DNA of 64,000 bases. It comes from Bacilli bacterium. GTDB lineage: Bacteria > Bacillota_I > Bacilli_A > ML615J-28 > CAG-698. Positions 11,102 to 46,493 of this stretch are shown in pieces. A model generated the notes under the pieces. That model was not told the origin of the DNA and ran no database searches. It saw only the letters and a program-made list of their open reading frames with translations. The position numbers were made by a program, and so were the translations under genes. The stretch covers positions 96,001-160,000 of the forward strand of contig JBMNLZ010000003.1 of NCBI GenBank assembly GCA_050953065.1. Reading direction: 5' to 3'. The stretch's first letter is position 1. Every line of letters begins with the position of its first letter.

Positions 11102-11143
11102 CCCCTTTTATTTAAATTTTTAATTAAAAATTACAAACTATCT

Positions 11144-17100: not shown

Positions 17101-18631
17101 TCAAACTATTATCAGAAATAAAGATTCTTGATTTGTTTCCTGCTTCTTGTTTAGTAACAAGCAAGTTAGCAGTATTTGTCTTTAAATCATAAAAACTCAA
17201 GCCATTACTTGAATTTAATCTTTGCTCATCAGCCTCATCATATGAGACATTTACATTTATTAGTCCTGTTACTTTTAATTGATCAACACTAGTATCTCCA
17301 AATATTGCTACACTTAAGTTCGGTGAATTTAAATTTAAATTATTAGAAACAACAGTCTTACCGCCGCCTCCCATATCAATATAGATTCTACCAGTAGCAT
17401 TAGTATTTATATTTAGATTAACAACACTCAAGTCACTTCCACTTGGAATATTTAAAAATACACTATTACTAGCAATTGGTGCTTGATAATTAAGATTTCC
17501 TGCTACTGTCAAATCATAACCATTTAAATCTAAAGTTATACCTTTATATATTGTAAGGTTTTGACTAGTTGAAATATTAGCCTTTAATCTAACAGTATGT
17601 TTATTAGCAGCACCCGTTTCTTCATTTAAAGCAGCTAGTAACTGTGTTTCATTTTCAACAAGCCATACTGGTCCTTCAATTGGATCGATTTCGTAAACAT
17701 CACCAAAAGAAATATGTAATCTTGGTTTAAGATATAAAATATTTTCAGTAGCTTGGTTAGGCGAAGTGATTGATGAAGAAATTATAGTGTATTCAATTTT
17801 CCAAAAGAAAGTTCCACCATCCTCATATCCAGAACCACTTGTTCCTGCTAAATAACGACCAATATTAGGATGATTAGAATCCCCCAATAACAGTTTAGCT
17901 AAATCCGCTAAATCACCACTTGATACAACAGTCTCTTCTCCTAAAGAAATACCTTCCACTAAATATAAATCAAGCGGAGTTGCTAAAGCATCAAATGCAA
18001 CAACATTCCAAGATGTAGTTGCAGTTGAATATTGATAAAGCACAGCATAAGATGCTGAAGTATAAAGATAAAAATCATCATTACTTCCAGGGCTACTTGG
18101 TTTAGAAGTTGATTTTGTGACTCCTGTAAATTCAAACCAACCACTTGATGTTTTTTTGTAAAATTTATCATTTGTAGTATCTAGATAGTAGCTTCCATTC
18201 TTACCTAAATCTCCAGATGGCACTCCACTACCTTTAAAAATCTTAGCTTTTCCTGCATTATTAATCGCTTTAATCTCTGATACAGTATAAGTAAATCGAT
18301 TCAAATAAAATTCATAACTTATATCCATAGTATCAAAAGATACAAAACTATATACTTCGATACCACCTTTATTTTCTAAAGATATATATTTTGTTTGAAC
18401 TTGGTCATAACAATCTATATATTCAACTTCTCCTTCAATTACCTTACCATCCTCATCATACCATTCAATATCTACTTCATAATCATTAATCAGTTCTACT
18501 TGAGCATGATCAACTGATGCTTGAGGAAAAACATCAAACCAACTATACGCAACCGAAATAAAGGCGAATATAACTAATAAGTATAAAATCGCCAGCATTA
18601 CAGTTTGGACGCTTTTTCTTCTCATTAACAC
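11144..18631 (-). CDS. Giant secreted surface protein (2495 aa), paralogue of the 2364-aa protein, with SipW-class signal and Flg_new repeats
   Basis: GTG start after GGAAGGAGG SD; signal ends AYS|WFD; long near-identical stretches shared with 4007..11101; many Flg_new-type repeats. Confidence 0.8.
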   Translation of the reverse strand: MLMRRKSVQTVMLAILYLLVIFAFISVAYSWFDVFPQASVDHAQVELINDYEVDIEWYDEDGKVIEGEVEYIDCYDQVQTKYISLENKGGIEVYSFVSFDTMDISYEFYLNRFTYTVSEIKAINNAGKAKIFKGSGVPSGDLGKNGSYYLDTTNDKFYKKTSSGWFEFTGVTKSTSKPSSPGSNDDFYLYTSASYAVLYQYSTATTSWNVVAFDALATPLDLYLVEGISLGEETVVSSGDLADLAKLLLGDSNHPNIGRYLAGTSGSGYEDGGTFFWKIEYTIISSSITSPNQATENILYLKPRLHISFGDVYEIDPIEGPVWLVENETQLLAALNEETGAANKHTVRLKANISTSQNLTIYKGITLDLNGYDLTVAGNLNYQAPIASNSVFLNIPSGSDLSVVNLNINTNATGRIYIDMGGGGKTVVSNNLNLNSPNLSVAIFGDTSVDQLKVTGLINVNVSYDEADEQRLNSSNGLSFYDLKTNTANLLVTKQEAGNKSRIFISDNSLIGTVTAEAADASSEVNTVQLVNLGTVGYIDLSNVAVAASPSKYMVDIYFDGVSTASTNQIKVPALANTDNTYLEISMNMDVLISSVSTITSYIRVFNNEITEVNTLNKFSITGSTTFTNDSISKPYYWVKFDTTGGKVLQVLKYGTIASFFEDNGTGGVYDFEPVSDEYIYFDGWYENGLEFVRNQAVTKDVVLTERMLTVDYLLQLELDSGVIDDYDTKSDMVDDFLDDYTYFYNTVNGTSLTGVNLLVPGDAGYNADTALVALMDEVGCTPTAFFNDDIVRARWLWMIEYMILIREAKGLPTTAFFGLLDNEEETAGARLLLKYEIWAFLSDKKYDVSGVTTSDYTNFGNGYDYIFFPSYPYRLSSVPFAQGGTSFVYTLPTPQRRGSHIVGGATYGYIFGGWYKDAAYTQLISGPTIDYATLVSLIPSGSTTATIYAKWVPGVAKVTFTDKSETYYNSIEAAIDASLLDVGSTITLLMNTSLDSARTINQNITLDLGIYYLTINANFTISNGSLKGSSAYLLAGTNGSILTIDNLVPIEAGVRPWSVVGNPISEFVIGGERVLDIVYTASNGSWTTNKRQVIFMYWADGDITNNVTSDLVLKVYSVAVVNQGATVTAPTAPTMSGWTFAGWNKYSGGNLIPSHNGYLYVGPSVTKANAAFNFSTAITESTVLVAWFKDTISYSIEGVTADATDDVYFGELSTVRMVDATIKKTGYRLVGWEYEISANETFECGVPYTYQAYLPHDALLKAVWIPIEYTVVFDANGGSGIMNPAYQNFVYNVPSNLYANTFVKAGYSFLRWNTKADGTGTNYSNQALVNSVNPISLTHGASIVLYAQWGVATYSITFNSSGGAGSMPNQNQTYLSTVALPTNAFTKAGHTFRGWSLNSSAQYIKFFDKQVITNEELLEIFNAGVGGVYTLYAVWVQDIYVARWTIDGTLVRSGIYLHQDSVTINITKTGYTFSGWYDNAAMLGSPVSYAGSFSMDRDMNYFGQFVANTYTLYFNANGSEALVSPTSKIVTYDSAVGPLPPALSGSSITRRNSTLVEWNTAANGSGTTYTSTTVYQVAGDLTLYAIWDFNINYSLNGGAWSWSTGTVTPANGIDSASTLPEIFMQDFYKYLYDETLLNSSLVRAEFRKTTWATFSADANDPRAWYNWTSDRYGNIGYVSYFSNDGYSQFFWNSLTFDNNLNIYKPVGGFFGTEPYKSKYSNVYDLVYELYQLKTATPSVPIYPPITSHDSTNGYGIAGFGFILDGYFYGTQGLTGTTNNTLWTDLRSTIPTPTTRYYVSGSTKYSSTTPYQVTSYRDGTIAYLKEPFRDGYLFGGWYDVATSTTVAVGSIPAGVIPADVYDALWGDVSTYSGSFSMNSNITFNKQGGTGGADSVVATYGQAMPLPNPSTPPTKTGYTFAGYYSQTGGAGTKYYNANLSSATNWNIFGPATLYAYWIPINYNLTWDFDYTNNSYPTGYQSLNGSLSGYTRTTYTIEDTFSLPNVNQAISNHPNYLELEGWYNAPDHSGAKVSAISAGTTGDKTFYAKWKPKTYTVTLTLNGGTLSGSYTEYTCFTGLTLPTSSNITRTGYIFDGWYDNSSFSGSPYTAIGTLDYGNKDFYAKWTPITYTLKLRMNSAGYVYYNKTLLAQDFCDDFNTYASRTSPPTTPSTFFTTSYTHSAMIVTMFNSSRGNIKWGWMLRYIIEVATAQNYPDLQYLTTNPNQTYYRLNIHAFLNGITYQYGSYTSADFTSTYGTGYASKDYYIYREFTFNRTYDDGQALMRVDYPDTSNNYALFSYWNFDPTLTGNDFSQESTANITTVNGATVTLYPVSNLKRRYGAGVDGDGYTYDTTYGIVYYFVNDYRLFYNAVNGASLAELTLLSHVPDGTPPYNASTAYIGRLGNANAYLSKFLNHSTYGPKWRWILNYWMAVKVKNNQSVTSLLNIMNGSTADPGASANRESWAFLRGYGNYSGFSSDYTGIVARYSYWLFLPMSVA

Positions 18632-18681
18632 GTTATATTCGCCTCCTTCCTTTAATTTTTAGGTTTTAAAATTTTTCTCCT

Positions 18682-21600
18682 TTATCTTTCCCAAATTTTT
18701 TCACCAACACGCGATGATAATTTATATATAGGATATAAATCATCATCAGCAGTAATTGTTTCAGGGAAATTACCATTAACATATCCATCACAAACTGAAC
18801 AAAGTTTACCAGGGTCAGATGCATGTCTTGGAACATTTGAGAAAGAATACCCAGAAACTGGAGCAACTGTACTCCACCCAATAAATGAATATAGTGTATT
18901 TCCACCAGCACTAGTTTTAATTGGCGTTGCATTATTTACAGTGCTACTATAACCAGTAATTAAATCATACATAAACGCTGCAGAATTTGTATGATATCCT
19001 AGGGTTTTTACTCCAGGTCCTCCTCTTTGAGTATAGTCTCCTGTAGGATAAACACTAGAGAAAACTTGATTAATCGTCCAACCAGTAGTTTCATTACCAG
19101 TAAATGTATACTCAACATTTGTATTTGGAATAGTTCTTCTAATATCTCTAATCAATTTAGTTCTATTATAAACATTAGTTGTTTGTTCTCCATTTATATT
19201 ATCCAGTGTTTGAAGTCCAAAGAAGTAAGCCTCTATGTTCCAAGCAAAAATTCTTCTAATCCGTTTGTTTACAAGAGGGTCTGTTCCATTATTTGTAGCA
19301 TTTACCCACTTACCTAGGCCGTAAGTTCCGTTACGATACTTTGCCCAATAAAGGGCTACCATCAAATCAACTAAACCTTTATATTTAGTTTTATATGGTT
19401 CAGTTCCTAAAAATCCACCAGATATAGTATATTCCATTGTATTAACATTCGTAGAAACAATATTTTGGAATAAAAAGTTTCCATAACCATCAGTTGCAGA
19501 TGTAGTTGATGTAGCAGCCCATTGAGTATGATATACTTCGCTATCTAGTACTGACCATGGAATTATGGTACCATTAGATTCTCTTCTTGAGAAAATAGCA
19601 CCAAATGCTGTTTGAATATCTTTATCACTTATATAAGCACCACTTTCCCTATAAAGCAATCCTTTACGACCATCAGCAGGATTACCATGAATATGACCAG
19701 TTAGTAATTTTTGAATCCTAAAATCATAATAATCTCTACCTGAAACTTGTGTTTTATAAAGGTCAAATTCAGGATATCTTTGATTATCAAGATAATGATA
19801 AAAGTCTGCTGCAAAAATTTCAGGTAAATCTGTAGCTGAGTCAATACTGTATCCAGGTTTCCCTTGATAAACTCCAATCGCAGCTGTTCCTACTTCCCAT
19901 TGCCACTTTCCACCAAATTCAGGATCACTAATTCTATAGGTAACCTCAGGATACCTAACAAGAGCTGTCCAAGTTCCTTGAACTGAAGATTGTCCATTTA
20001 TTGAAATTGCTGCACTAGTTTGTGGGTCTATTAAATTATATGTTACAGTAACTATACCAATTCCTTCTGTAGTATCACTTACAAGAGAAAGACGCTTTGT
20101 TGTAGCATTGAAATCTGAATTTGACTTCCATGCATTTCCACCTAAAGTTGCACTAAAGACTGTATTTTGAATATTAAGTGGAGCGTCAGCAGCTGCAATC
20201 GTAAAATCAACAGTGTTTTTTAAAACCATTGTTTCAGTTTTTGTTGTTCCGTTTGAAGTTCCGTTTAAACTAATTGCAGCCATTGCATTAACTTTGAAAT
20301 ATAAGTCCATATCTCTTGTCAAATACGACAATCTTTCAGGTGGTACTCTATTACCTAAATTATCTTGCCATTCACTAAAGATAGTAGCAAGTGGTACCCA
20401 ACAAGTAGCTCCACCTGTTTCATAAACTGCTAAATTACTTGTAATTGAAGCACTATAATATGTTGAAAAAGTAGCTTCAGGTAAATCTGTAGGAGATTGA
20501 ACTAACCATGGTTTATATAAATTAATAGTAAAATATTCGCACCATGAAATATCAACATTTGCTGAAGGATCTATATCCTTAGCAATATATTTAGTTGTTT
20601 CAGTTCTATAGAATGATTGTTTTTCAATACCATTAATATAAGAACCAATCTTAGATGCATCAGCTGCAGCATAAATTTCAATAGTTGTATTTTCATAACT
20701 TGTTGTAAAACAATCATCGTTTCCTAAAACATAACCTTGTTTAACAATTAAATCTACTCCAGATCCTAGTGCTAATTGATATGCTCCTAAATCAAAAGTA
20801 ATATTTTTATCGATTGTAAAATCTGCTAATAAGTGATAGTCATTTAATAACTCTATTCTATCTCCTGCTTGTGCAGCGTTGTAAGGTTCAGCAAATGTAT
20901 TATAACTACCAATAATTTCATCATTTCTAATAAGCCTAATTACATAAGGATCCCAATAAGAATAAAGTGATAAAGCATAAGTACCAGTTCTAGAATCCCA
21001 ACTACCATGTGATAAAATATCAGATGTAGATACAAAATAACCTTGTTTTGTATTATCATATGGTATGAAATTTGAAGGATTATAAGCTAAATTACTAGCA
21101 AATGCCCAACCTTCAAATCTATAGTTTTCTTTAGAAGGTTCTGCAAAAGAAATTCCGTCAAATCCAGCATAAACATCCCCTGCATCAAAATAAATCTGAT
21201 TATTACTAGAAAAGTTTGGAGCACTAAAGCTAAATCCCGCTTTATCCTTATCAGCTAATTCATAATTAATAGTAAAAGCGATTATTTCATATAAATAAAT
21301 ATCAGATGATATTACAAACGTATTTAAATCAACTAATCCATCAAGTGGAGTTGAGATATAAGATGAAGATGCACTATCCCAAGTTCTCGAATACCATGTA
21401 GCACCTTCTTTTGGAATATAAGTTGGGTTGATTCGTTCAGCATAGTTTACAACAGCAGTTGAAGTTTGTTCTACACCAAATTCATCCCAATAAATAAAGT
21501 GAACTGTACTATAAATTTGTAAGACATGTTGTGTTTGAAATGATGTATCTGCTATTGATTCATTATCAACTAATATTTTTCTAGCGTAGAATTCAACACC

Positions 21601-23085
21601 TTTTCTATAATTTGTTCTATATAGATTGGAATTTAAACCAACTTCCATATAAGTATTACCTTGAGTTAATACTTCACGATTAGCATCAAAAGTTGAATAA
21701 GTTGCAGTATTTGGTATTGTAACGTGATACTTAGTTTCATCACCTGTTGTGTATCTACCAAAAATTTCACCATCATTATAAATTTCAATTAAATGATCTG
21801 CAAAAGCATAATTTAAATTTACTTGTTTAAAATCAATATAACCTATTTGTCCATAATTTATAACTTCAACATTTGAAACATATGAGATTGGAGTTCCTCC
21901 ATGAAACATTTGTTTTTCAGAAGCAACAAGCCCTACAAATGATGACTTATCAATAAACACTCTTGATCCAGCTCCACTAGACCCCCCTGCAATAATTAAA
22001 TCAGCTCCTAAATATTCAGCTTCTTTTTGTAAACTAATCATATGAATATTTTTTACATAAAGTCCTGCTGCTGAATGTTTTAAATTATATGCTAAATTTG
22101 AAACTGGTTTAGCAACATCTACATAAATCTTGCCATTTACCTTTAATTGAGCATATGAAGATGTTAAATAATTTCCTTCAAGCCTAAACTTAGCGTATGG
22201 CATTTTAATAATCAAATCTCCATTAACAGTTAAAATACCTCCACCTGTTAAATCAAGGAAACTATCTGTAGCCCCACCATATTCAAAAATTAAATCTCCA
22301 TCAACAGTTAAGTTATAATTATTTAATTTAACAGCTGTGTTATTAGCAAAATCCGTAACAAACAATGTTTTTGGATATGAAATATCGGCAGTTAAATTTA
22401 GTGTGCTTCCGTTCTTTTTAGCTGTTAAGTAATTATCAATATTAGCAACTGTTCCAACATTTACAACTCCCCCACCAGTTGCTAAAGTGGCTTCATTTTC
22501 ATAAAAGGCAGCAATTCTTGGATTTAAAACCATCTGAGAACCAACTGCATTTTCACCTATACCTGTAACTGAATAAGCTAAAGTATACCTATATTCAATT
22601 CTTTCAGTTTCATCAACAGTATATCTTGGCAAAACTGTCAAATCAGAAATATAACTTTCTAAATATGTAAAGTCTTTATTAGAAAATAATGTTTCTACTG
22701 CCCCAGTTGGAATAGTGTCTACTTCTTTTTGACGTGTCAAAGTAGCACTAAATGTAACATTATCTTTAATACTTACATAATTATCTTCAAATTGAAAACC
22801 AACAGTATATGCAATATTGTCTGGTCCAATACTATGATAATGACCAACTAAAAATTTAAATTCTTTATTTGTAATATTATTAGTATTTAAAATTGAAATC
22901 GTTTGATCTCCACTCTTAGCTACAGCTACACCATTTTCTGGGAACCTTACATCTAGTGGTTCATAGATATATGTAATACTACCAAACCAACCAAATACAT
23001 TACCAATTAAAAAGGTGCTAAAAAATATAACAAAAAATACTAGCAACAAGAATCTACTCTTGTTTTGCATCGCCATTTTCGTCAT
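18682..23085 (-). CDS. Large secreted surface protein (1467 aa) with SipW-class signal, beta-rich N-region and degenerate Flg_new repeats
   Basis: AGGAGGTG SD; signal ends NVFG|WFG; shares the SIDSATDLPEIFAADFY...GGFLGTEPYKTKY module with the two giant proteins; start overlaps the sipW end. Confidence 0.75.
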   Translation of the reverse strand: MTKMAMQNKSRFLLLVFFVIFFSTFLIGNVFGWFGSITYIYEPLDVRFPENGVAVAKSGDQTISILNTNNITNKEFKFLVGHYHSIGPDNIAYTVGFQFEDNYVSIKDNVTFSATLTRQKEVDTIPTGAVETLFSNKDFTYLESYISDLTVLPRYTVDETERIEYRYTLAYSVTGIGENAVGSQMVLNPRIAAFYENEATLATGGGVVNVGTVANIDNYLTAKKNGSTLNLTADISYPKTLFVTDFANNTAVKLNNYNLTVDGDLIFEYGGATDSFLDLTGGGILTVNGDLIIKMPYAKFRLEGNYLTSSYAQLKVNGKIYVDVAKPVSNLAYNLKHSAAGLYVKNIHMISLQKEAEYLGADLIIAGGSSGAGSRVFIDKSSFVGLVASEKQMFHGGTPISYVSNVEVINYGQIGYIDFKQVNLNYAFADHLIEIYNDGEIFGRYTTGDETKYHVTIPNTATYSTFDANREVLTQGNTYMEVGLNSNLYRTNYRKGVEFYARKILVDNESIADTSFQTQHVLQIYSTVHFIYWDEFGVEQTSTAVVNYAERINPTYIPKEGATWYSRTWDSASSSYISTPLDGLVDLNTFVISSDIYLYEIIAFTINYELADKDKAGFSFSAPNFSSNNQIYFDAGDVYAGFDGISFAEPSKENYRFEGWAFASNLAYNPSNFIPYDNTKQGYFVSTSDILSHGSWDSRTGTYALSLYSYWDPYVIRLIRNDEIIGSYNTFAEPYNAAQAGDRIELLNDYHLLADFTIDKNITFDLGAYQLALGSGVDLIVKQGYVLGNDDCFTTSYENTTIEIYAAADASKIGSYINGIEKQSFYRTETTKYIAKDIDPSANVDISWCEYFTINLYKPWLVQSPTDLPEATFSTYYSASITSNLAVYETGGATCWVPLATIFSEWQDNLGNRVPPERLSYLTRDMDLYFKVNAMAAISLNGTSNGTTKTETMVLKNTVDFTIAAADAPLNIQNTVFSATLGGNAWKSNSDFNATTKRLSLVSDTTEGIGIVTVTYNLIDPQTSAAISINGQSSVQGTWTALVRYPEVTYRISDPEFGGKWQWEVGTAAIGVYQGKPGYSIDSATDLPEIFAADFYHYLDNQRYPEFDLYKTQVSGRDYYDFRIQKLLTGHIHGNPADGRKGLLYRESGAYISDKDIQTAFGAIFSRRESNGTIIPWSVLDSEVYHTQWAATSTTSATDGYGNFLFQNIVSTNVNTMEYTISGGFLGTEPYKTKYKGLVDLMVALYWAKYRNGTYGLGKWVNATNNGTDPLVNKRIRRIFAWNIEAYFFGLQTLDNINGEQTTNVYNRTKLIRDIRRTIPNTNVEYTFTGNETTGWTINQVFSSVYPTGDYTQRGGPGVKTLGYHTNSAAFMYDLITGYSSTVNNATPIKTSAGGNTLYSFIGWSTVAPVSGYSFSNVPRHASDPGKLCSVCDGYVNGNFPETITADDDLYPIYKLSSRVGEKIWER

Positions 23086-23611
23086 TTTTTCTCACCTCCT
23101 TTACAATGCAATATACTTGGTAATATATTACAAGCACTAAAGGAACAAGTACCAATGCTAAAAAGATATACTTGTTCGATATAAAAGAATAAATAACAGT
23201 AATAAATGATAATTTTTTTATAATTTTACCCTTAATTTGACTTCCATTTACTAATGGATCAAGTTCAACATTTTTATCTCCCTTAAGAGTAAAGATATAA
23301 TCACCATTATTTTCTTCTATATTTACGATTCTGTGCGTAACTATCTTACCATTGTAAGTGCCAACTTCACCTAAATAAGCAACAACATCATCTACTTCTA
23401 AAGTATCTAAAGACACTTTTTTACTAACAATGATATCTCCAACATCATAAGTACCACTCATACTATCAGTAACAACTACATACATTTGGTACCCAAAAAC
23501 TTGTGGAGTTTCACCTTTTACAGTTTGAACAAACGAAAAGCCTAGGATTATAAATAAGAATATAAACACTACATATACTATTATCATCATAAAGGCCTTG
23601 AATCTTTTCAT
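23054..23611 (-). CDS. sipW: Signal peptidase I, SipW/ER-type (S26B)
   Basis: N-terminal TM; VVTDSM (catalytic Ser), VGD, VTHRI (His), LKGDKN; C-terminal TM. Confidence 0.88.
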   Translation of the reverse strand: MKRFKAFMMIIVYVVFIFLFIILGFSFVQTVKGETPQVFGYQMYVVVTDSMSGTYDVGDIIVSKKVSLDTLEVDDVVAYLGEVGTYNGKIVTHRIVNIEENNGDYIFTLKGDKNVELDPLVNGSQIKGKIIKKLSFITVIYSFISNKYIFLALVLVPLVLVIYYQVYCIVKEVRKNDENGDAKQE

Positions 23612-23636
23612 TTTATTCTCACTTTTTATTTATAAA

Positions 23637-24878
23637 TTATTTCTCTTGTAATGATTCTCTCTTCTTTTCTAGTTTTTCTTGTTGCTTAATAATCTTTCTA
23701 ATAGTTTCTTGTTTTTCTCTAATTTTCTTTTCAATTTCTAATTCTTTTTCATAACTCTTCAAAACTCTATCAATTGAGGCTAAAACATCTTTTTCATTAA
23801 CCTTTTTAATTCTACCACTTACAAGATTAGTAGAACCTACCTTTTCTAATTCTAAGACATTTTCATCTTCTACATATCTATTAACAAAAGATTTAACAAA
23901 AGTAGGTCTAAGTTTAGTTACTCTATCGTTTTGTTTGACAACTAAATCTTTATCAACATATTCTTTGAATAGCAAGAAGTTAGAAAACATTGAATAACCC
24001 AATTGATCGACAAACTTTTGATCTACCTTACCTAATGATTCATTTACCTCAACTGAAAAACCAATCTTATCGTATGTTTCAATAAACTGCCATAATTTTA
24101 AAGCTTTCTTAAAGTCAGGGTTTTTTAAGATAACATTCGTTCTAACAATAGGAGGTCTAACCATCGCAGAACCTGCCATTTGTTTTGAAAATGGACTGTG
24201 ATATAATCCGTCAATTATCTTAGCAAGTCTTGCAACACGCTGAATCCCGCTCATACCTTGAGGATTTTGTTGCATTAAATCATCAAGAGTTGATTCTGAT
24301 TCAATTTTAAGCTCATATCTAAATCTCTTTCCTTCAACTTTAAAGTTTGATTTTATTGAAACTTCATTTAAATCACCTTCAGCTAAAGCTCCCTTAATAA
24401 TCTGCAGACGTTTTTCAATAAATATTCTTAAGTTAAAGATTAAAGTATAGATAAATCTGTTTTCATAAATCTCATAACTTTCTTCTTTATAAACATTTAA
24501 GATTCGATCAGGAATAACCTCATCCCCTCTAACCTCACTAATAAGGTTAGTGTTTTGAGCAAGATGTCTAATAGATTCTTGTGTAACTTTCTTGGCTAAA
24601 GAAACTGGGATAATATCTTCTTCTTGAACGATAAACTTTCTTGGATTTCTTACAATCGTATCAAGCGAAGGAGTCGCTTCTTCAATTGCTTCTAACCAGT
24701 CTTCATCAACATTTTTAATTTTCATTCTAGTATAGAGATTCATTTCATTTTCGCCATTTGCGACCATCTCTATAAAGTCTTTATAAAAATTATCGTTACC
24801 TATAGTAGCCATTACATTTTTAACTGTATTTAGATAACTTTTATCTGGAGTTTTATCATCTTTTGCCATAACGGCCAC
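23637..24878 (-). CDS. DUF2357 (McrC-N-like) domain protein with C-terminal coiled coil; no evident nuclease domain
   Basis: YEIYENRFI motif and N.ILKNPDFKKALKLW resemble DUF2357; directly downstream of the McrB-like AAA gene; C-terminus is K/E-rich. Start may be ATG at 24869. Confidence 0.7.
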   Translation of the reverse strand: MAVMAKDDKTPDKSYLNTVKNVMATIGNDNFYKDFIEMVANGENEMNLYTRMKIKNVDEDWLEAIEEATPSLDTIVRNPRKFIVQEEDIIPVSLAKKVTQESIRHLAQNTNLISEVRGDEVIPDRILNVYKEESYEIYENRFIYTLIFNLRIFIEKRLQIIKGALAEGDLNEVSIKSNFKVEGKRFRYELKIESESTLDDLMQQNPQGMSGIQRVARLAKIIDGLYHSPFSKQMAGSAMVRPPIVRTNVILKNPDFKKALKLWQFIETYDKIGFSVEVNESLGKVDQKFVDQLGYSMFSNFLLFKEYVDKDLVVKQNDRVTKLRPTFVKSFVNRYVEDENVLELEKVGSTNLVSGRIKKVNEKDVLASIDRVLKSYEKELEIEKKIREKQETIRKIIKQQEKLEKKRESLQEK

Positions 24879-24897
24879 CTTTCTTTTTTCTTAATTA

Positions 24898-26415
24898 TTA
24901 GAATAGTTTCTTTAATCTCTTTAGATAATCTTTACATTCTTCCATGTTTTGAGAACCAAATAATTTATCCAAGTAAGCAATTAAACCATCAATTTCATCT
25001 CTGATATAAGATAAGTTCAAACTTTCAAACTTTCTTAAGATTTTGTTTGCTAAAACATAATCAAGTCCATCTAATTCAGTTCCACCTGTAGCAATATATG
25101 TTGGAATAAATTCAGTTAATTGTTTTAAAATACGGTTACCAAACGCTAACCTAAAGTGTTTAATAACATAGTCATCTAGTAATTCTAATTTATCTAAAAC
25201 TTCTTGACTTACCTTATGATTTTCCTTAGCTTCTTTATATAAATTCTCTAAATGATCAAATCCAATTTTTACTGGATCTGTATCTGGTGCTGGGAAAAAC
25301 TTACCTTTTTGGTTAATATTAATTGGCATACCACGGTCATAAACTTTATCCGAAATCGCGAAAGTCGAGTCGTCCATGTTAACAGTACCAACATAGTACA
25401 TATTTTGAGGAAGTTTAAATCTACCCTTTACAATATGTTTAGGGTCATTTGGCCAACCACTGGCAACTAAGTCAACAATCCATAAGTCCCTAATCGGCAT
25501 TTCTAGGATTGATAACATCTCAGCGAAGTAGTACTCAACTCTGGCGATGTTCATTTCATCCAGGATAATAACTGAAACTTCGTTAGTATAAGTTGCTTCA
25601 TATAAAGCTTTTAAAACTTCTGTTTCATTAAATCTTTTTGTAAATTCGTTAAAGTAACCAAATAACTCAGTTCTATCACGCCATGATGGTTGAACTGAAG
25701 CTAGTGTTACTGGGTTTTGTAAGAACTTACCGAAGGCATACGGTAAGGAAGTCTTACCAGTACCAGAAATACCTTGTAAGATAACAAGTCTAGCACTTGA
25801 AAAAGCTGAAATAAATAATCTAATTGTTTTGATATCATAGAATAACTTTAATCTTGAACAAGCAAAGTTTCTAAATCTTTCACATAGATCATCTAATCTA
25901 ATAGTATTATCATATTCAGGTGCTACATAGTTTTCATATTTTTGGTCAATTTCAGTTAACTTATAGAAACGACTATTACTAGTATCAACTTTCTTCTCTC
26001 CTACTGCTCCCTCTTCTGCTCCAGTTCCATCCGCAGCAAAAGCAGGGCCTCCAATTTGAGAAACCTTTAAAGCTAGAATTCTATCTTTTTCTTGGTTAAC
26101 TCTCATAACCTCTCTTTTTAGAGAAGTTATTTCATCAATCAAGTCCTCAGAGCTTACCTTACTTCTTCTAATTCTGATATATCTTCTTAAGAAATATAAG
26201 AATAACCAAAGAATCGCTCCAACAACAGCAATAACGCACAGTAAAAGTAGGATACCTACTACCCATTGCCACCAAACAAATCCTCCTGAATGTCCTTCAA
26301 ATACTTTATAGTATTCAAAGACGTTTAGCATTTCATAAATGCTAATCCAAATGCCTGAGAATCCCTTCCAAAATACTAGTAGAAAATCTTTCAAAAAATT
26401 AATTATAGTTTCCAT
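24898..26415 (-). CDS. Membrane-anchored McrB-like AAA+ NTPase
   Basis: Walker A GISGTGKT; VQPSWRDRTELFGYFN; Walker B ILDEMNIARVEYYF; GTVNMDDST (McrB-type NxxD); SDKVYDR. N-terminal TM helix plus coiled coil. Confidence 0.82.
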   Translation of the reverse strand: METIINFLKDFLLVFWKGFSGIWISIYEMLNVFEYYKVFEGHSGGFVWWQWVVGILLLLCVIAVVGAILWLFLYFLRRYIRIRRSKVSSEDLIDEITSLKREVMRVNQEKDRILALKVSQIGGPAFAADGTGAEEGAVGEKKVDTSNSRFYKLTEIDQKYENYVAPEYDNTIRLDDLCERFRNFACSRLKLFYDIKTIRLFISAFSSARLVILQGISGTGKTSLPYAFGKFLQNPVTLASVQPSWRDRTELFGYFNEFTKRFNETEVLKALYEATYTNEVSVIILDEMNIARVEYYFAEMLSILEMPIRDLWIVDLVASGWPNDPKHIVKGRFKLPQNMYYVGTVNMDDSTFAISDKVYDRGMPININQKGKFFPAPDTDPVKIGFDHLENLYKEAKENHKVSQEVLDKLELLDDYVIKHFRLAFGNRILKQLTEFIPTYIATGGTELDGLDYVLANKILRKFESLNLSYIRDEIDGLIAYLDKLFGSQNMEECKDYLKRLKKLF

Positions 26416-26459
26416 ATTTTCATGCCTTTCTTATTTTTTAGGTTTTCTAAAAACACAAC

Positions 26460-26533
26460 AATTTTAAACTAATTATTAATAAAATAATTAGTTTAAAATT
26501 ATCGTCCGTCTTTTTTAAGAAGACGATAATTTT
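26460..26533 (-). terminator. Overlapping double hairpin (terminator, attenuator or RNA-stability element)
   Basis: Perfect IR AATTTTAAACTAATTATT/AATAATTAGTTTAAAATT (26460-26500) overlapping IR AAAATTATCGTC/GACGATAATTTT (26495-26533). Confidence 0.6.
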
Positions 26534-26537
26534 TAGT

Positions 26538-27338
26538 TTATTCTTTCTTTTCTTCTTTTGAACTTTCTTTTTCTTCCTCTTTAGCTTTTTCTTTAGCCGC
26601 TAATTCTTCTTTTTGTTTCTTTAAGAATTCTTGAATTGCTAGCTCTTTTAATTCATCCGATAACTCACCGGTTTCAGCTGCTTTAGCAAGTTCAGTCTTT
26701 CTCTTTAAATCAACAAAGAATTTAATAAAAGCAAATAAGTTCCAAACAAACAAACCAAGCATTGGTAAGAAGACAGCAACTAAGAAGACAGTTGGATCTT
26801 TAATCCAATCTAGGACTTTTCCAAGCCCACCAATTTTTCCGCGATATACCGCCACAATATCATTTGTTAAAAAGGGATCGTCTTCTAAAAACTCATTATC
26901 ACCTTTTGTAGTACACCAAACTAAAGGTTTCCCAGTCTCAGAATCAATTAAATGAGGATCTTCACGCATTTCAACAAGTCTATGAATTCGTAAATACTTA
27001 TCTCTTCCTGCTCCAACCCAAATAGCTACAATATCACCTGGTGTATCAGAGTCTTTATAACCAGCTACTAACTCTTTTGATTCATCATATGCACCCATAA
27101 TAGTTAAGTCACCAACTTTAATAGTCGGTTCCATTGAATCAGTTTGAATAGCCAAAAATGATACATCAATCACAGGAAGTCTACTTACTCCTCCTGTTTT
27201 ATTACTAATAGAAGCAATAATAACAAAAAAAGCAAAAACTATTAATATTATTTCTAAAATATTTATAATATTAGAAATAATTTCTTTTTTTCCTAATTTC
27301 TTTTTTTCTTTTGTTTGAGTATTAGTTTCTTTTTCCAC
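26538..27338 (-). CDS. sipW: Second SipW-type signal peptidase I (S26B) with charged C-terminal tail
   Basis: IQTDSMEPTIKVGD, RIHRL, TKGDN; N- and C-terminal TMs; GTG start after AGGAG. Confidence 0.85.
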   Translation of the reverse strand: MEKETNTQTKEKKKLGKKEIISNIINILEIILIVFAFFVIIASISNKTGGVSRLPVIDVSFLAIQTDSMEPTIKVGDLTIMGAYDESKELVAGYKDSDTPGDIVAIWVGAGRDKYLRIHRLVEMREDPHLIDSETGKPLVWCTTKGDNEFLEDDPFLTNDIVAVYRGKIGGLGKVLDWIKDPTVFLVAVFLPMLGLFVWNLFAFIKFFVDLKRKTELAKAAETGELSDELKELAIQEFLKKQKEELAAKEKAKEEEKESSKEEKKE

Positions 27339-27347
27339 TATTGTCTC

Positions 27348-28202
27348 CTATCCTAATTCTTCTTCACTTGCATTTCTTACCGCAAAAACTAAGTTTATCT
27401 CTACGTTTTGACCTAAATATGCATCCACACAATTTTCATCAGTTCCTTCAAACCAAACAACTAAAGTTACAACATCTTTTCCTTCTTCATCAAATTTACT
27501 AGCATCTATAAGAAAAAGTGGTGTAGCCATCGCTGCATATCCAGCTTTTATTAATAAAACTTCATTTTCCCCCTCTGGATTTTCTTTAATTCTTCCACTT
27601 GTAGCACCACCTATTGGATTATCAAAGTCTGCACTAGTAACAAAAGTCAATTCATCACTTATAGCATTTGGAGCCCAAATACCAATTAACTTATTATCTT
27701 TTATAAAAGCAACTCTTGTAGCTCTTGATATTTCTTGGTCTGCAGTTAAATTAGCATCCCCAGTTAAATAAACTATCTTATCAGTATCCTCTGGTTCATC
27801 TTCATCCATATTGTACGCAGAAAACCAAAAACTAATTACTAAAGCATCTCCATAACCATTAACTTTTTTATAATTGGTTGGACTTGCTTCATTTATTGCA
27901 TAGAAACTAAGTCCATTCCCTGACTGATCGCCCATTAAATGATCAATTACACTTGTAGAGTAAAATGGGTCAAATTCATCATCAAAGAATATTTCTCTAC
28001 GATAATTTTCAAAAATCCTTGGATAAGTTTCGCTATCAGCAGTATTAGCATAAATTCTTAATTTTCCCGAAGTACTTGCTTGAATAAGAGAGCTTTGATA
28101 AGAAGCACGCTTTGAAAGAGATATCCAAGCATAAGCGGCAGATGTTGCTACTAAAAGCGAAACTATGAGCATTAAAAATAATAGCACAAATCTTCTTCTC
28201 AT
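27348..28202 (-). CDS. SipW-class secreted protein, WxEGxD family (putative fibre subunit)
   Basis: Signal ends AAYA|WIS; DQSGNG, RVAF, GIWAP, VVWFEGTDENCVD. Confidence 0.7.
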   Translation of the reverse strand: MRRRFVLLFLMLIVSLLVATSAAYAWISLSKRASYQSSLIQASTSGKLRIYANTADSETYPRIFENYRREIFFDDEFDPFYSTSVIDHLMGDQSGNGLSFYAINEASPTNYKKVNGYGDALVISFWFSAYNMDEDEPEDTDKIVYLTGDANLTADQEISRATRVAFIKDNKLIGIWAPNAISDELTFVTSADFDNPIGGATSGRIKENPEGENEVLLIKAGYAAMATPLFLIDASKFDEEGKDVVTLVVWFEGTDENCVDAYLGQNVEINLVFAVRNASEEELG

Positions 28203-28236
28203 AAGCTTTCCTTTCCTTTAAAATTTATTTATTTCC

Positions 28237-29418
28237 TTAGTCCCATCTAGCATAAAGATTGAAAGTATTATTCGGATTAGCAGTGCCAAGTCTTAATTCC
28301 CATTTATTAGTTCCACCATCATTATAGATTGGTAAAACATCTGTATAAAAAGCATCTCTATACCAACCAGCAAAAGTAAAACCAGCTTTTGTTGGAGCAG
28401 TTAACAAATAGGCATCTGAATTGGCACCTTTATTAAACTCAGTAACATCTATAATTTTAGGGTTTGAATTTACTCCACCATTTAAATTATAAATTGGTGA
28501 ATATTTATTTGCAGGCATTCTTCCTGAAAATATCATACTAATATTAACACTTTGACCTATTAAAGCATCTGTTGTATTAGGGTCACTTCCCTCAAACCAA
28601 ATTACAACCTTTACCAAAGGACCTGTGATTTGAGATGCATCAACTTGAGCAATTGATGTCCCTGCATAAATTCTTCTAACAACAGTAGCACTATATGAAG
28701 CAGGGTTTATATAATAATTATTAGGTATAGACTCACTATAAACAGTGCCTTCAAAATCTTGGAAATTTGTAGTCCCAAAACTAGTACTTGGAATAATTGA
28801 CCCACTCAAATTACCATCCCCTGGCCTACCATTACCATCATTATAATCTGCATTAGTAACAAACCTATTATCAGCAGTATTAGAATATACTCCAAAAACA
28901 TTGTCATTGACATCTAAAAACGCGATACGAACAGAATATGCTAAATCTTTTAAATGTGGTCCGGCAGCTGCATTTTCTACCACGATACTTTCTAAATAAA
29001 TATCTCTCATATCAGTTTCAGTACTACCAGTATATGATGTAAAATACAAATCATAAGCTAATGCAACTCCTGTACCACTTATAGCACCATATTTATAATT
29101 ACTACTATCAGGTACTGCTTCATAAAACCGGCTACCATTTCCTGATTGGTCTTTCATAATATGATTTGCATAGCCTGGATTATAAAAATCATCTTCAGGA
29201 TCACTAAAATCAATATAAGTTGTATAGTTAGAAAATATATTAGGAATATCATTTTGATTATGTGTCCATACTTTTAAATAACCTTTTGTTTCAGCTTTAA
29301 CGTTAACACCTCTTACTTCTGCTTCTTTTGAAGCTGTAAACCAAGCATAACCAGCTAAAGTAACTAAAAATACAGAAACTAGTAATAAAAATATTAGTAA
29401 AATTAAATTTTTTCTCAT
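28237..29418 (-). CDS. SipW-class secreted protein, WxEGxD family, with C-terminal Flg_new repeat
   Basis: Signal ends AGYA|WFT; DQSGNG, RIAFL, VIWFEGSDPN; C-terminal YNLNGG...PTKAGFTFAGWY...LYARW. Confidence 0.72.
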   Translation of the reverse strand: MRKNLILLIFLLLVSVFLVTLAGYAWFTASKEAEVRGVNVKAETKGYLKVWTHNQNDIPNIFSNYTTYIDFSDPEDDFYNPGYANHIMKDQSGNGSRFYEAVPDSSNYKYGAISGTGVALAYDLYFTSYTGSTETDMRDIYLESIVVENAAAGPHLKDLAYSVRIAFLDVNDNVFGVYSNTADNRFVTNADYNDGNGRPGDGNLSGSIIPSTSFGTTNFQDFEGTVYSESIPNNYYINPASYSATVVRRIYAGTSIAQVDASQITGPLVKVVIWFEGSDPNTTDALIGQSVNISMIFSGRMPANKYSPIYNLNGGVNSNPKIIDVTEFNKGANSDAYLLTAPTKAGFTFAGWYRDAFYTDVLPIYNDGGTNKWELRLGTANPNNTFNLYARWD

Positions 29419-29442
29419 ATTTTTTCTCCATTACCATAAAAC

Positions 29443-29520
29443 AATTTTTAATCAACTTTTATATTTTAAAGTTGATTAAAAATTATTCTCTATTCTTATC
29501 TTAAGAATAGAAGATAATTT
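29443..29520 (-). terminator. Overlapping double hairpin with the same architecture as 26460-26533
   Basis: IR AATTTTTAATCAACTTT/AAAGTTGATTAAAAATT (29443-29484) overlapping IR AAATTAT..CTATTCTTA/TAAGAATAG..ATAATTT (29480-29520). Confidence 0.6.
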
Positions 29521-29537
29521 AAAATTGATGGAACTTA

Positions 29538-29575
29538 AGAAGGAGATACTTGGAAATGATGATATCTCCTTCTTT
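29538..29575 (-). other. Stem-loop downstream of the 406-aa gene
   Basis: IR AAGAAGGAGATA...TATCTCCTTCTT. Confidence 0.55.
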
Positions 29576-29624
29576 ATTTTAAGTTCTTTTATTTTTTAAA
29601 ATCTATAAACTGTTTTAGATATTA

Positions 29625-30845
29625 TTAAGACCATTTTGCATAAATCTTAATAGTTCTATCAGCAGCAAAGTCGCTTGGTCTTAGATACCACGTAGTTCCA
29701 GCATCATTTGTCATGATTGCATCACCTTCATTCATTCCAGGATCATCAAACCAACCACCAAATGTAAATCCAGGTTTAGTTGGAACGCCTATTGTACGCA
29801 AGTCTGTATATGATTGTCCGCCAATAGTTTCTGATTCATTAAATTGAGCTGCTGTAAATGTTGGTGCGTTTGCTGCGTTGTTAGCACCACCATTAGTATA
29901 ATAAGTAATAGCATATGTGTCAGCAGGCATTCTAGATTGGAATATCATATCAATTGATACTTGATGGCTTAATCTTGAGTCATCAGTATTTGGATCTGAT
30001 CCTTCAATCCATACAACTACTTTAATAGTTGGGTTAAGAGCCTTAATAACAGATGAATCGATTTGACAAATACTAGTTCCTGAAGAAGCAGTACCAGTAG
30101 CTGAAGGAATAATTCTACGAACTACTGAAGCAGCAGGTCCAGCTGGTTTAACATACTTAAGTTCAGATGTAGATTCAGTAATTGATCCCGCTTCAAAATC
30201 TGTATAGTTAGTAGTATCAAAAGCTGTACTTGAAACAACACTGCCGTCTAAGTCAGCTGCAGCTGTAGAAACTGGATCACCAGCTTGACTTTGAAGTGCG
30301 TATTTTGGTTGCCCTGAAGAATGCGCCCAAATACCATAAATATTATTATTGCTGTCTAGGAAACCAATTCTTACAGATGGTAATAAAGTACCAGAAGCGT
30401 TTGTAACAGTTAAACTACTTAAGAAAATATCTCTCATTTGGCTAGTAGCATTACCTGTATAAGCACTGAAATATAGGTTGTAAACTAAAGCTACACCAAA
30501 ACCAGATGCTACACCATAGTTTGCGCTTGCCCCAGCAGCTACAGCTTCAACAAATTGAGAACCATTTCCAGATTGGTCTTTCATGGCATAATCTGTATAA
30601 GCTATATTGTAGAATGGGTCAGTAGGCTCAGCAAAATTAATTGCAGTAGTATAATTTTCATAATCATTAGTAACGCCATTTGCGTTTTCTGTCCAAACTT
30701 TTAATACACCTTGAGTTTCGGCTTTGATTTGTGTTCCTTCAATTTCAGCTTGAGCTGAAGCAGTAAACCATGCATAACCGGCAGCAGTAACAACTAAAGC
30801 CGACAATAACAACATCATAAATAACATTAAAAATCTTTTTTTCAT
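29625..30845 (-). CDS. SipW-class secreted protein, WxEGxD family, with C-terminal Flg_new repeat (paralogue of 28237..29418)
   Basis: Signal ends AGYA|WFT; MKDQSGNG, RIGFL, GIWA, VVWIEGSDPN; PTKPGFTFGGWF...IYAKW. Confidence 0.72.
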   Translation of the reverse strand: MKKRFLMLFMMLLLSALVVTAAGYAWFTASAQAEIEGTQIKAETQGVLKVWTENANGVTNDYENYTTAINFAEPTDPFYNIAYTDYAMKDQSGNGSQFVEAVAAGASANYGVASGFGVALVYNLYFSAYTGNATSQMRDIFLSSLTVTNASGTLLPSVRIGFLDSNNNIYGIWAHSSGQPKYALQSQAGDPVSTAAADLDGSVVSSTAFDTTNYTDFEAGSITESTSELKYVKPAGPAASVVRRIIPSATGTASSGTSICQIDSSVIKALNPTIKVVVWIEGSDPNTDDSRLSHQVSIDMIFQSRMPADTYAITYYTNGGANNAANAPTFTAAQFNESETIGGQSYTDLRTIGVPTKPGFTFGGWFDDPGMNEGDAIMTNDAGTTWYLRPSDFAADRTIKIYAKWS

Positions 30846-30974: not shown

Positions 30975-31766
30975 TTATCCTAAATCTTCTTCTTCTAAAC
31001 TAATAATATTAAAAACCATTTCCAATTTTAAAGTTCCATCAATACGTTCATCAACACATTCGGGATCAGTTCCTTCAAGCCATAAGACTATAACATATCT
31101 ATCGGCTTGTCCTACCTCTAAAGAATTTCTCACTTCTTTAGTTACTAAAGTATCACTTAAGAAAACTAGTGCATCATCTTCTTCTTCAATGCCATAATTT
31201 AAATCTTCATAAGCAATCTTTTCAGGAACGGTAGTAGTTCCCTCTCTTGCTTTCGCAAAAACTTTACGACTCGTCTCATTATTTTCGCTATCAAATGTTA
31301 ATAGCATTACCCTCACAGCGCTGTTTAAATCTTTTGTAACAACGGGAAAAGAAATCATATACTCATAATCTAGTACCTCAATACCAGAATTCTTAATGTA
31401 AAATGAATAGGCAACATAGTTAAAGCCATTGCTTGACCCTTCCATGTTATGATATTCTCTATATTTAACATCTTTATAAGAACAATCCGTTAATTTTAAA
31501 ATTCCATCTCCACTAATCGCAGATTTTGCTTTTTCAAAACTTGACTCTTCTGATAAGACAATTGATTTACCAACCATCTTAGTATCATCAACTTTAACTG
31601 TTATCATTCCATCAGTTGTCATTCCTACCATTAAAATAATATATAAAAGTGCTAACAATAATGGAATTGCAATAATAACAGCAATAGCAACTTTCTTAGC
31701 GAAACTTCGCCTAAACCTACCTCTGACTCTTTTACTAATACTTACATTAGTCATCCGAAGTTTCAC
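30975..31766 (-). CDS. Membrane-anchored WxEGxD-family protein (no SipW cleavage motif)
   Basis: Basic N-tail plus TM helix without A|WF; AVRVML and IVLWLEGTDPECVD. Likely start ATG at 31754 behind GGAGGTG; overlaps the HD-GYP gene end. Confidence 0.68.
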   Translation of the reverse strand: MKLRMTNVSISKRVRGRFRRSFAKKVAIAVIIAIPLLLALLYIILMVGMTTDGMITVKVDDTKMVGKSIVLSEESSFEKAKSAISGDGILKLTDCSYKDVKYREYHNMEGSSNGFNYVAYSFYIKNSGIEVLDYEYMISFPVVTKDLNSAVRVMLLTFDSENNETSRKVFAKAREGTTTVPEKIAYEDLNYGIEEEDDALVFLSDTLVTKEVRNSLEVGQADRYVIVLWLEGTDPECVDERIDGTLKLEMVFNIISLEEEDLG

Positions 31767-34391: not shown

Positions 34392-34512
34392 TTTTTTAAA
34401 TACCTTTCTATATTTTTTTAAACATTTAATCGTTCACACCAATATAATAACATATTCTTATTTATTTTACTAGTATAATTTTATTTTTTATTTTTTAAGC
34501 AATAACAATTAA

Positions 34513-34543
34513 TAGAAAACCACTGAAAAACAGTAGTTTTCTA
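34513..34543 (-). terminator. Hairpin/terminator after the 300-aa gene
   Basis: IR TAGAAAAC.ACTG/CAGT.GTTTTCTA. Confidence 0.55.
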
Positions 34544-34568
34544 AAAAATCTTTCCAACTTAAATATTT

Positions 34569-38078: not shown

Positions 38079-38088
38079 TTAAATTTGC

Positions 38089-39983: not shown

Positions 39984-39986
39984 AAT

Positions 39987-41655: not shown

Positions 41656-41680
41656 CTTTTCTAAAAAAATTTTCTAATAA

Positions 41681-44295: not shown

Positions 44296-44300
44296 TTATT

Positions 44301-46491: not shown

Positions 46492-46493
46492 AA

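Follow-up and report, generated by a model that had tools for sequence, protein, structure and literature searches.

A nuclease-free McrBC-like pair with a membrane-tethered NTPase as a probable component of a SipW/TasA-like fibre operon in a Bacilli bacterium

Introduction

McrBC is the textbook modification-dependent restriction motor, and a gene pair of this ancestry embedded in an operon for surface fibres raises the question of what such a motor does there. A pair of this kind is encoded at positions 23,637–26,415 of the 64,000-nucleotide (nt) stretch of DNA analyzed here (hereafter the window), which covers positions 96,001 to 160,000 of contig JBMNLZ010000003.1 from a Bacilli bacterium of the CAG-698 lineage (GenBank assembly GCA_050953065.1); run labels locate this DNA in anaerobic digester and sludge. 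The pair consists of a 505-amino-acid (aa) McrB-like AAA+ nucleoside triphosphatase (NTPase) and a 413-aa McrC-like partner. The original prediction, made from the letters of the window, was that a restriction-derived pair had taken on a non-defence role at the cell envelope, and the genomic context, a SipW/fibre cassette, supports this proposal. The pair is not a restriction enzyme and is a built-in, co-inherited part of the operon, and on balance we consider it probable that it forms an integral, non-defence component of a SipW/TasA-like fibre machine.

In their survey of McrBC systems, Bell et al. (eLife 2024; PMC11090510) name, in one paragraph that defers its study, a large clade called CoCoPALM with the NTPase signature NxD in place of NxxD. 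In that paragraph the CoCoPALM NTPase is described as fused to an FtsB-like transmembrane (TM) and coiled-coil domain, with coiled coils usual on both subunits; an association with genes of the signal-peptidase family is reported and a link to pilus assembly is predicted, and neither a mechanism nor a list of substrates is given there. Within the literature searched, the name occurred only in this paper and its preprint, and no follow-up was found. As judged from its sequence, the window pair is a CoCoPALM McrB-like NTPase with a nuclease-free McrC-like subunit. The non-defence reading has already been published as a prediction, and the locus described here adds a member to an uncharacterised kind.

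Results

The McrB-like NTPase

The McrB-like AAA+ NTPase of the NxD clade (505 aa; 24898–26415, minus strand) was recognized by profile and PDB matches and by hydropathy. It comprises an N-terminal segment (residues 1–46), a TM helix (∼47–76), a basic patch, a short coil (∼86–122), a linker, and the AAA+ core and lid (186–505). All of the McrB-family motifs listed in the original prediction were found in the translation (GISGTGKT, SWRDRTELFGYFN, LDEMNIARVEYYF and GTVNMDDST). The only PDB match was E. coli McrB (6hz4_A; phmmer, E 1.2e-4, residues 191–361), with Walker A, Walker B, the signature Asn/Asp motif and the arginine that follows it all aligned between the two proteins. The NCBIfam McrB model NF008457 matched at E 1.5e-4 with 20.7 bits, far under its equivalog cut-off of 637 bits, which marks the protein as a distant McrB relative and not the restriction subunit itself; Pfam AAA_5 fell marginally below its cut-off. 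Taken together, these sequence comparisons indicate a distant but clear relative of McrB.

Hydropathy analysis gave a single strong segment (∼47–76; Kyte-Doolittle maximum 3.17), preceded by 46 residues with a net charge of −2 and followed by the patch RRYIRIRRSK with a net charge of +4, an arrangement that under the positive-inside rule places the AAA+ domain in the cytoplasm. A heptad-like stretch forming a short coil follows at ∼86–122, so that the TM helix and coil anticipated for this N-terminus are both present. The first 46 residues are aromatic-rich and moderately conserved. No FtsB or DivIC match was obtained from Pfam at E ≤ 10 for the N-terminal 192 aa, and nothing there scored below 0.03.

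The catalytic residues are intact. Walker A K221/T222, Walker B D286/E287 (ILDEMN), N346/D348 and R361 were invariant in all 36 aligned homologues, R361 (DKVYDR) being the trans-acting arginine after the signature motif, which aligns with the RR of E. coli McrB. The mean column identity of the AAA core was 85% across 73 sequences, and together with the invariant residues this points to purifying selection on an enzyme that is predicted to be active. The signature motif reads NMDD in the window protein and NNDD in 72 of 73 homologues. An AAA paralogue encoded elsewhere in the genome, 33% identical, aligns its NLDE without gaps to the NMDD of the window, and comparison of the two shows the conserved Asp to be the third residue, i.e. 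the NxD form.

The McrC-like partner

The 413-aa partner (23637–24878, minus strand), separated from the NTPase gene by 19 nt, was assigned by Pfam DUF2357 and by matches of an AlphaFold2 model. It contains a DUF2357-type core (∼55–275) and a helical C-terminus that includes a lysine/glutamate (K/E)-rich helix (362–412). The DUF2357-type motifs previously noted for this protein, YENRF and NPDFKKALKLW, were found in the translation, and the Pfam match covered residues 69–161 (E 3.6e-9; 36.7 bits against a cut-off of 23.3). The model, built from an alignment of 46 homologues (pLDDT, the predicted score in the local distance difference test, 81), was compared with 48,161 representative chains, and its two best fold matches were McrC chains, 6ut5_G of Thermococcus gammatolerans (Z 9.4, root-mean-square deviation (rmsd) 4.0, 136 residues aligned) and 6hz4_M of E. 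coli (Z 8.7, rmsd 4.3, 141 aligned), both spanning model residues 55–272. By the standards of a partly helical model these Z values are middling, but they rank first and agree with the Pfam assignment. A Foldseek search of the same model against the PDB returned nothing at E ≤ 0.001, with McrC chains at ranks 23–27 (probability 0.66–0.80).

A cryptic PD-(D/E)xK domain was sought in the window partner and in its family, and none was found. In the AlphaFold2 model, residues 274–413 form a single beta-hairpin, three low- or medium-confidence helices and the 51-residue K/E-rich helix 362–412, leaving no room for a PD-(D/E)xK alpha/beta core. No nuclease domain was detected in the partner by Pfam, by PDB sequence search or among the listed fold matches, and an Atlas search with residues 270–413 gave no usable match. 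The D...(D/E)xK triad is absent from the 22 invariant columns of the 46 homologues, which include Y138-E139-N140-R141, R214, P243, T247, N248 and K252. Three loose regular-expression matches to PD-(D/E)xK in the partner were rejected as chance, none falling on conserved columns. The original description of the protein, a K/E-rich coil with no recognizable nuclease motif, is thus borne out by profile, fold and conservation alike. A hydropathy scan of the partner found no hydrophobic segment.

In homologues of the partner the conserved core is followed by a coiled-coil or low-complexity tail, variable and in most of them much longer than here, and by nothing else. Among the 120 best of 1233 homologues, which ranged from 227 to 723 aa, DUF2357 was the sole precomputed Pfam family and no McrC-SipW fusion was seen. 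At 413 aa the window partner is short for its family (median ∼750 aa, range up to 1245 aa), and other short partners of 387–450 aa exist with ∼50% core identity; the partner in the nearest same-family copy is 428 aa long. Neither the missing nuclease nor the membrane tether is peculiar to this locus; both are family-wide traits.

Conservation and synteny of the cassette

Database relatives of the AAA protein number more than 8000. The 120 best were mostly full length, 56–94% identical and nearly all ∼500–520 aa long, and, with one genome per species, 576 of 600 candidate stretches encoded a relative, so that no fewer than 576 species carry one. Synteny was assessed on the best 80 of these loci, all from other species and scored by tblastn with the window proteins; selection by similarity to the window biases the resulting counts towards its clade. 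In 75 of the 80 loci a McrC-like gene lay no more than 2.5 kb downstream in the same orientation, and where the downstream flank reached 1.5 kb or more this held without exception (70 of 70). SipW was present in 72 of 80 loci, and in 45 of the 46 whose flanks extended 3 kb or more to either side; the sole miss among the latter (L038) has a SipW-like open reading frame (ORF) by blastp. SipW was directly upstream of the AAA gene in 52 of the 64 loci with enough flank, and in loci labelled Christensenellaceae it lies between the AAA and McrC-like genes. A homologue of the 263-aa anchor protein of the window (described below), leader-bearing proteins and giant proteins recur around the pair in related loci, and the same gene order was found in 12 of 14 fetched same-family loci.

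Gene content in the host family followed the same pattern. In a set of 24 same-family genomes, 18 had the AAA gene and 15 the 263-aa anchor gene; the two occurred together in 15, neither was found in 6, the AAA gene stood alone in 3 and the anchor gene alone in none. Same-family kin are not independent, and this joint presence and absence is a pattern, not a test. Five of the six genomes with neither gene are 94–98% complete and one is 89% complete. Of the three AAA-only genomes, one has a match to the other paralogue type and no more, in another the contig breaks off just upstream of the cassette, and the third has a partial 40% match.

Two variations on the arrangement were observed. In the phylum sample, contigs such as G223:C45, G104:C22, G081:C2 and G295:C1 carry two AAA copies ∼15 kb apart, which suggests tandemly duplicated cassettes. 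A subtype in the sister family (L095, L097, L098, L099 and L096) is larger and again has the pair after a SipW gene, with a SipW of 332–340 aa, an AAA protein of 600–617 aa and a ∼420-aa partner that is barely recognizable as McrC-like, followed by conserved proteins of ∼250, 530 and ∼815 aa.

SipW peptidases and the tail helix

The pair had been described as sitting exactly between two sipW genes, and SipW-type genes do lie on both flanks. The upstream one (26538–27338, minus strand), 122 nt from the 505-aa gene, encodes a 266-aa signal peptidase with two TM segments and a charged cytoplasmic tail bearing the helix ELAIQEFLKK; it matches TIGR02228 under the 51.85-bit cut-off (E 7.6e-10, 38.9 bits), and its S68 and H119 are invariant in 40 aligned sequences. 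The downstream one (23054–23611, minus strand) encodes a 185-aa enzyme with a short tail that scores over the same cut-off (E 1.9e-19, 70.1 bits); its gene begins 25 nt after the 413-aa gene and overlaps the start of the gene for a 1467-aa protein. These are both of the membrane SipW copies of the genome, with no other copy in it. A third genome match to sigpep_I_arch was rejected as a SipW, being a 149-aa S24/S26-like protein without TM segments (L103:2687-3136 on G000:C1, minus strand) that adjoins radical-SAM/SPASM-like and HPr-kinase-like genes, possibly a peptide-maturation cluster unrelated to the pair.

Cassette SipW proteins carry two TM segments and end in a charged tail, and in the copy beside the AAA gene this tail contains a helix with the consensus L(S/T)(D/E)E(E/Q)K..AI.EYLA, corresponding to ELAIQEFLKK in the window (residues ∼225–245). 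The strict pattern occurred in 55 of 107 SipW ORFs (51 of 72 loci), compared with 1 of 1133 other ORFs, and mainly in the upstream SipW class (47/64 versus 6/43, counted in the last 120 residues). The invariance of the helix residues in alignment A2 is circular because its rows were chosen by the motif. Conserved cytoplasmic features of the cassette are limited to the NTPase pair, an HD-GYP/EAL protein in some loci and the SipW tails, and the tail helix is the best candidate for a docking site of the pair. A complex prediction of AAA residues 79–505 and McrC-like residues 1–330 with the SipW tail (209–266) scored 0.00, which speaks neither for nor against binding. Given a pair that is integral to the fibre machine, we would regard docking at this tail as a tentative possibility.

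The fibre operon and its host

Upstream of the 266-aa SipW gene, the locus encodes three secreted paralogues of 284, 393 and 406 aa with the common leader ...(A/G)YAW(F/I)... (27348–30845), a membrane-anchored TasA-like subunit of 263 aa (30975–31766), an HD-GYP and EAL-fold protein of 488 aa (31747–33213) and two further leader-bearing paralogues of 288 and 300 aa (33525–35471), all on the minus strand. Three giant surface proteins of 1467, 2495 and 2364 aa with the same leader type are encoded on the other side of the pair (4007–23085, minus strand), the two largest with Listeria-Bacteroides repeats. The leader is common to eight locus proteins, five of 284–406 aa and three of 1467–2495 aa, and is a hydrophobic segment ending in (A/G/S/V/H/N)-(Y/F/H)-(A/S/G)-W-(F/I/Y). 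The only strong terminator-like hairpin in the locus, with a 13-bp stem, lies between the 300-aa and 288-aa genes (34513–34543, minus strand), and the first leader-bearing paralogue may therefore be a separate transcription unit.

The small leader-bearing proteins share a W-x-EG-x-D motif with the 263-aa protein. It is C-terminal in the 263-, 284-, 288- and 300-aa proteins, and lies further in, ahead of a C-terminal Listeria-Bacteroides repeat, in the 393- and 406-aa paralogues. The 284–406-aa paralogues were linked to Peptidase_M73 by an Atlas lead at 0.86 only, and the 263-aa protein had no Pfam match to that family. The latter is the most conserved of the motif-sharing set, with a homologue labelled in 45 of the 80 loci, and has a basic N-terminus, an uncleaved-looking TM helix without the leader motif and a beta-sandwich domain. 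Its model (pLDDT 88) shows a long helix and a beta-sandwich, and in both structure searches the best match was the TasA fibre 8aur_A (Foldseek: E 4e-4, probability 1.00, TM 0.34–0.37; VIA: Z 7.2, rmsd 3.8, 141 aligned). Further down both lists came other donor-strand pilins, namely FimA, archaeal bundling pili and the Sulfolobus 0406 filament. With scores of this modest size, TasA-like is a reasonable reading of the 263-aa protein and not proof. We infer that it serves as a membrane-anchored base subunit; the small leader-bearing proteins would then be fibre subunits, and the giant proteins candidate fibre-borne adhesins.

The HD-GYP/EAL gene ends with a 20-nt overlap into the 263-aa anchor gene. 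Its product matches the Pfam families HD_5 (E 2.9e-13) and EAL (E 1.2e-13), with an intact-looking HD-GYP motif, HHEAWDGSGYPRGL, and an EAL-fold signature that reads EFL, and a homologue lies upstream of the cassette in 13 of 80 loci. Its presence in the operon suggests control by cyclic di-GMP (c-di-GMP). No Rfam family was found across the whole window, and hence no c-di-GMP riboswitch there. Directly upstream of the fibre locus is a surface-polysaccharide cluster (35776–47606, minus strand) encoding epimerases/dehydratases, UDP-glucose dehydrogenase, a nucleotidyl transferase, an aminotransferase, glycosyltransferases and a flippase-like protein; together with glycine-cleavage genes it makes up the other neighbours of the pair. 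Six metatranscriptome runs contained 10–32% of the sampled words of 23000–27400, as scored by word matching only.

The host genome has 1.55 Mb and is 94% complete. No match to the penicillin-binding protein (PBP) transpeptidase (PF00905) or to FtsW/RodA (PF01098) was found in it, and only one to Mur_ligase_M. The missing PBP and FtsW/RodA matches indicate that the host is probably wall-less and Mollicutes-like, which fits a fibre rooted in the membrane.

Discussion

A proposed role in the fibre machine

Within the fibre machine the pair most likely works as a cytoplasmic nucleotide-driven motor, gate or switch. By homology with McrBC, the 505-aa proteins would form a hexameric, possibly GTP-using ring, held at the cytoplasmic face of the membrane by the N-terminal TM helices and coils, and the DUF2357 core of the 413-aa protein would plug into this ring in a 6:1 complex and stimulate hydrolysis. 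The genomic context suggests that the ring acts on or through SipW, for which the cytoplasmic tail helix would be the most plausible coupling point, and that it may gate or drive both the cleavage of leaders and the transfer of subunits held in the membrane to the growing fibre. The variable coiled-coil tail of the partner could be a spacer or an output arm. The products of the operon would be SipW-processed TasA-like subunits, the membrane-anchored base subunit and the giant adhesins.

Evidence on the other side and alternative explanations

Several observations weigh against this role. McrBC, from which the pair descends, is a defence enzyme. TasA fibres of Bacillus form without a cytoplasmic NTPase, so a motor is not required for that fibre type generally, and no experimental data on any CoCoPALM system were found in print. 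The TasA match of the 263-aa model is modest (see above). The strict SipW tail motif was rare, in 2 of 15 fetched same-family and sister-family loci, and most same-family tails have a similarly placed, different-looking helix, (K/R)(I/L/M)R.EI(L/M).E(I/L/M)K. Distribution across the phylum sample (E ≤ 1e-80) was patchy, with an AAA copy in 78 of 399 genomes and 42 of 172 genera; some families were nearly full (23/30 and 6/7), and the three largest small-genome families had none (0/54, 0/89 and 0/48). Several of these genomes hold two or three AAA copies, a change in copy number typical of defence genes. A tree of the C-terminal 340 residues of 97 AAA copies (FastTree, LG+gamma), comprising those of 75 of the top 80 loci and of the window, a further 20 from related genomes and, as outgroup, the paralogue of the window genome, grouped the window copy and one same-family copy with metagenome-assembled genomes (MAGs) labelled Clostridia, Christensenellaceae or Ruminococcus (support 0.994), while 12 other same-family copies sat apart from these two. 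The window protein is also 55–63% identical to those of the MAGs, compared with 41–54% within its own family. The tree and the identities together indicate that the cassette probably moved between distant lineages, as defence genes also do.

The patchiness, the multiple copies, the apparent lateral spread and the McrBC ancestry would all suit a defence or conflict system, in which the pair would be a membrane-bound sensor of phage attack at the fibre or envelope that triggers an effector, or a guard of the fibre genes. In PMC11090510 the nearest named relatives, the CoCoNuTs, are predicted defence systems, and the AAA core of the window protein matches the PADLOC candidate model PDC-M26A (E 1.7e-34). 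Against this reading, no nuclease or other effector domain was found in the pair or in the inspected 120 best of 1233 partner homologues. The partner had no PADLOC match, and at E ≤ 1e-5 none of the 26 neighbouring window ORFs matched a defence model; homologues of the pair, had they belonged to defence islands, would have pointed the other way, and they lie instead in the same SipW/fibre cassette, at a fixed position within the fibre operon. The 85% core identity is unusual for fast-evolving defence genes, and no copy covering 80% of the AAA protein was found on 72,556 plasmid or 50,697 phage records, where matches were confined to the core at 27–41% identity. We consider a defence function quite improbable. 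Still harder to credit, to the point of being very improbable, is a decaying, functionless McrBC remnant left in the operon by chance. The short partner (413 aa against a median of ∼750 aa) would fit decay, but both frames are intact, the gaps are 19 and 25 nt, the catalytic residues are all invariant, short partners of 387–450 aa recur elsewhere with ∼50% core identity, and the closest same-family copy has a short partner as well.

A regulatory switch is the remaining alternative, and one that we judge unlikely; the pair would read a cytoplasmic signal, either the nucleotide state or c-di-GMP via the HD-GYP/EAL protein, and switch SipW activity or signal from SipW back to gene expression. B. 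subtilis SipW is described as bifunctional and as influencing matrix gene expression in the passage of PMC13082335 that cites Terra et al. 2012. At the present locus the HD-GYP/EAL gene is in the same operon and overlaps the anchor gene, but its homologues occur in only a minority of loci, and the window has no riboswitch or other Rfam family. The regulatory role of the B. subtilis enzyme reportedly needs its C-terminal tail, and the SipW tail helix is conserved here. Hydrolysis by McrB is slow and stimulated by the partner, which would suit a switch. Against this, neither protein of the pair has a DNA-binding or output domain, and a hexameric AAA+ ring with six membrane anchors would be costly for a mere switch. 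An integral place in the fibre machine remains our preferred reading of the pair.

Implications

If the pair is indeed part of the fibre machine, a large conserved branch of McrBC that has shed its nuclease would clearly exemplify the recruitment of a defence motor to cell-envelope biogenesis, and some TasA-like fibres would need cytoplasmic energy or control, unlike those of Bacillus. The carriers are abundant uncultured bacteria of gut, rumen and digesters, in which such fibres may matter for adhesion and aggregation. The locus offers several experimental handles, namely the minimal 413-aa partner, the SipW tail helix, and a compact genome with both of its SipW copies in the cassette.

Comparison with known systems

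The McrBC systems of E. coli and T. gammatolerans (6hz4, 6ut5 and 6ut6) share with the window pair Walker A and B, the Asn/Asp signature, the arginine finger and the McrC N-terminal fold. In the window pair, however, a TM helix replaces the DNA-binding N-domain, there is no PD-(D/E)xK nuclease, the signature is NxD rather than NxxD, sequence similarity reaches only E ∼1e-4, and the genes lie within a surface-fibre operon. CoCoNuTs, as characterized in PMC11090510, belong to the same NxD branch of McrB-like NTPases and have coiled-coil fusions, but they carry nucleases or RNA-binding domains, both missing from the window pair, and no signal peptidases. A second NxD-type pair, which looks CoCoNuT-like, is encoded in the same genome (L082:8098-12358, minus strand, equivalent to ∼465–469 kb of G000:C3). 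One member is an 895-aa protein whose N-terminal part is hydrophobic and whose signature reads NLDE (33% identity with the window AAA core), the other a 528-aa protein bearing an IS1595-type zinc ribbon; the pair adjoins ftsH, hpt and tilS, and a same-genus genome (L101) has a pair of the same type.

The Bacillus operons tapA-sipW-tasA and sipW-tasA-calY resemble the window operon in having a SipW-type peptidase beside its substrates, and in the subunit whose best match is the TasA fibre. They have no cytoplasmic NTPase, whereas the window operon has one and further encodes two peptidases, eight proteins with the leader, a base subunit with a TM anchor, and giant adhesins. Type IV pili and archaella offer a functional analogy only, in that they too have a hexameric NTPase on the cytoplasmic side of the membrane, a leader peptidase of their own and subunits that an N-terminal hydrophobic segment keeps in the membrane. 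Their NTPase belongs to a different AAA+ clade without homology, the window subunits are built as beta-sandwiches where the pilins are alpha-helical, cleavage by SipW takes place on the outer face, unlike that by the peptidases of those systems, and no polytopic platform protein was seen here. A bolder proposal, and to our minds a doubtful one, would make CoCoPALM a third, independently evolved NTPase-driven machine for fibre assembly, with a membrane-tethered McrB-type ring docked on the SipW tail and a McrC-like shaft at its centre, in an apparently wall-less host, where hydrolysis would drive the passage of membrane-held TasA-like subunits and giant adhesins into a fibre on its TM-anchored base, or set its timing.

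The closest likeness is to CoCoPALM itself, with which the window pair shares an NxD NTPase, a TM helix and coil, a coiled coil on the McrC homologue and adjoining SipW genes. Beyond the published description, the locus has an HD-GYP/EAL protein in the operon, and it adds to that description a conserved SipW tail helix, an unusually short partner of 413 aa and a host that is probably wall-less.

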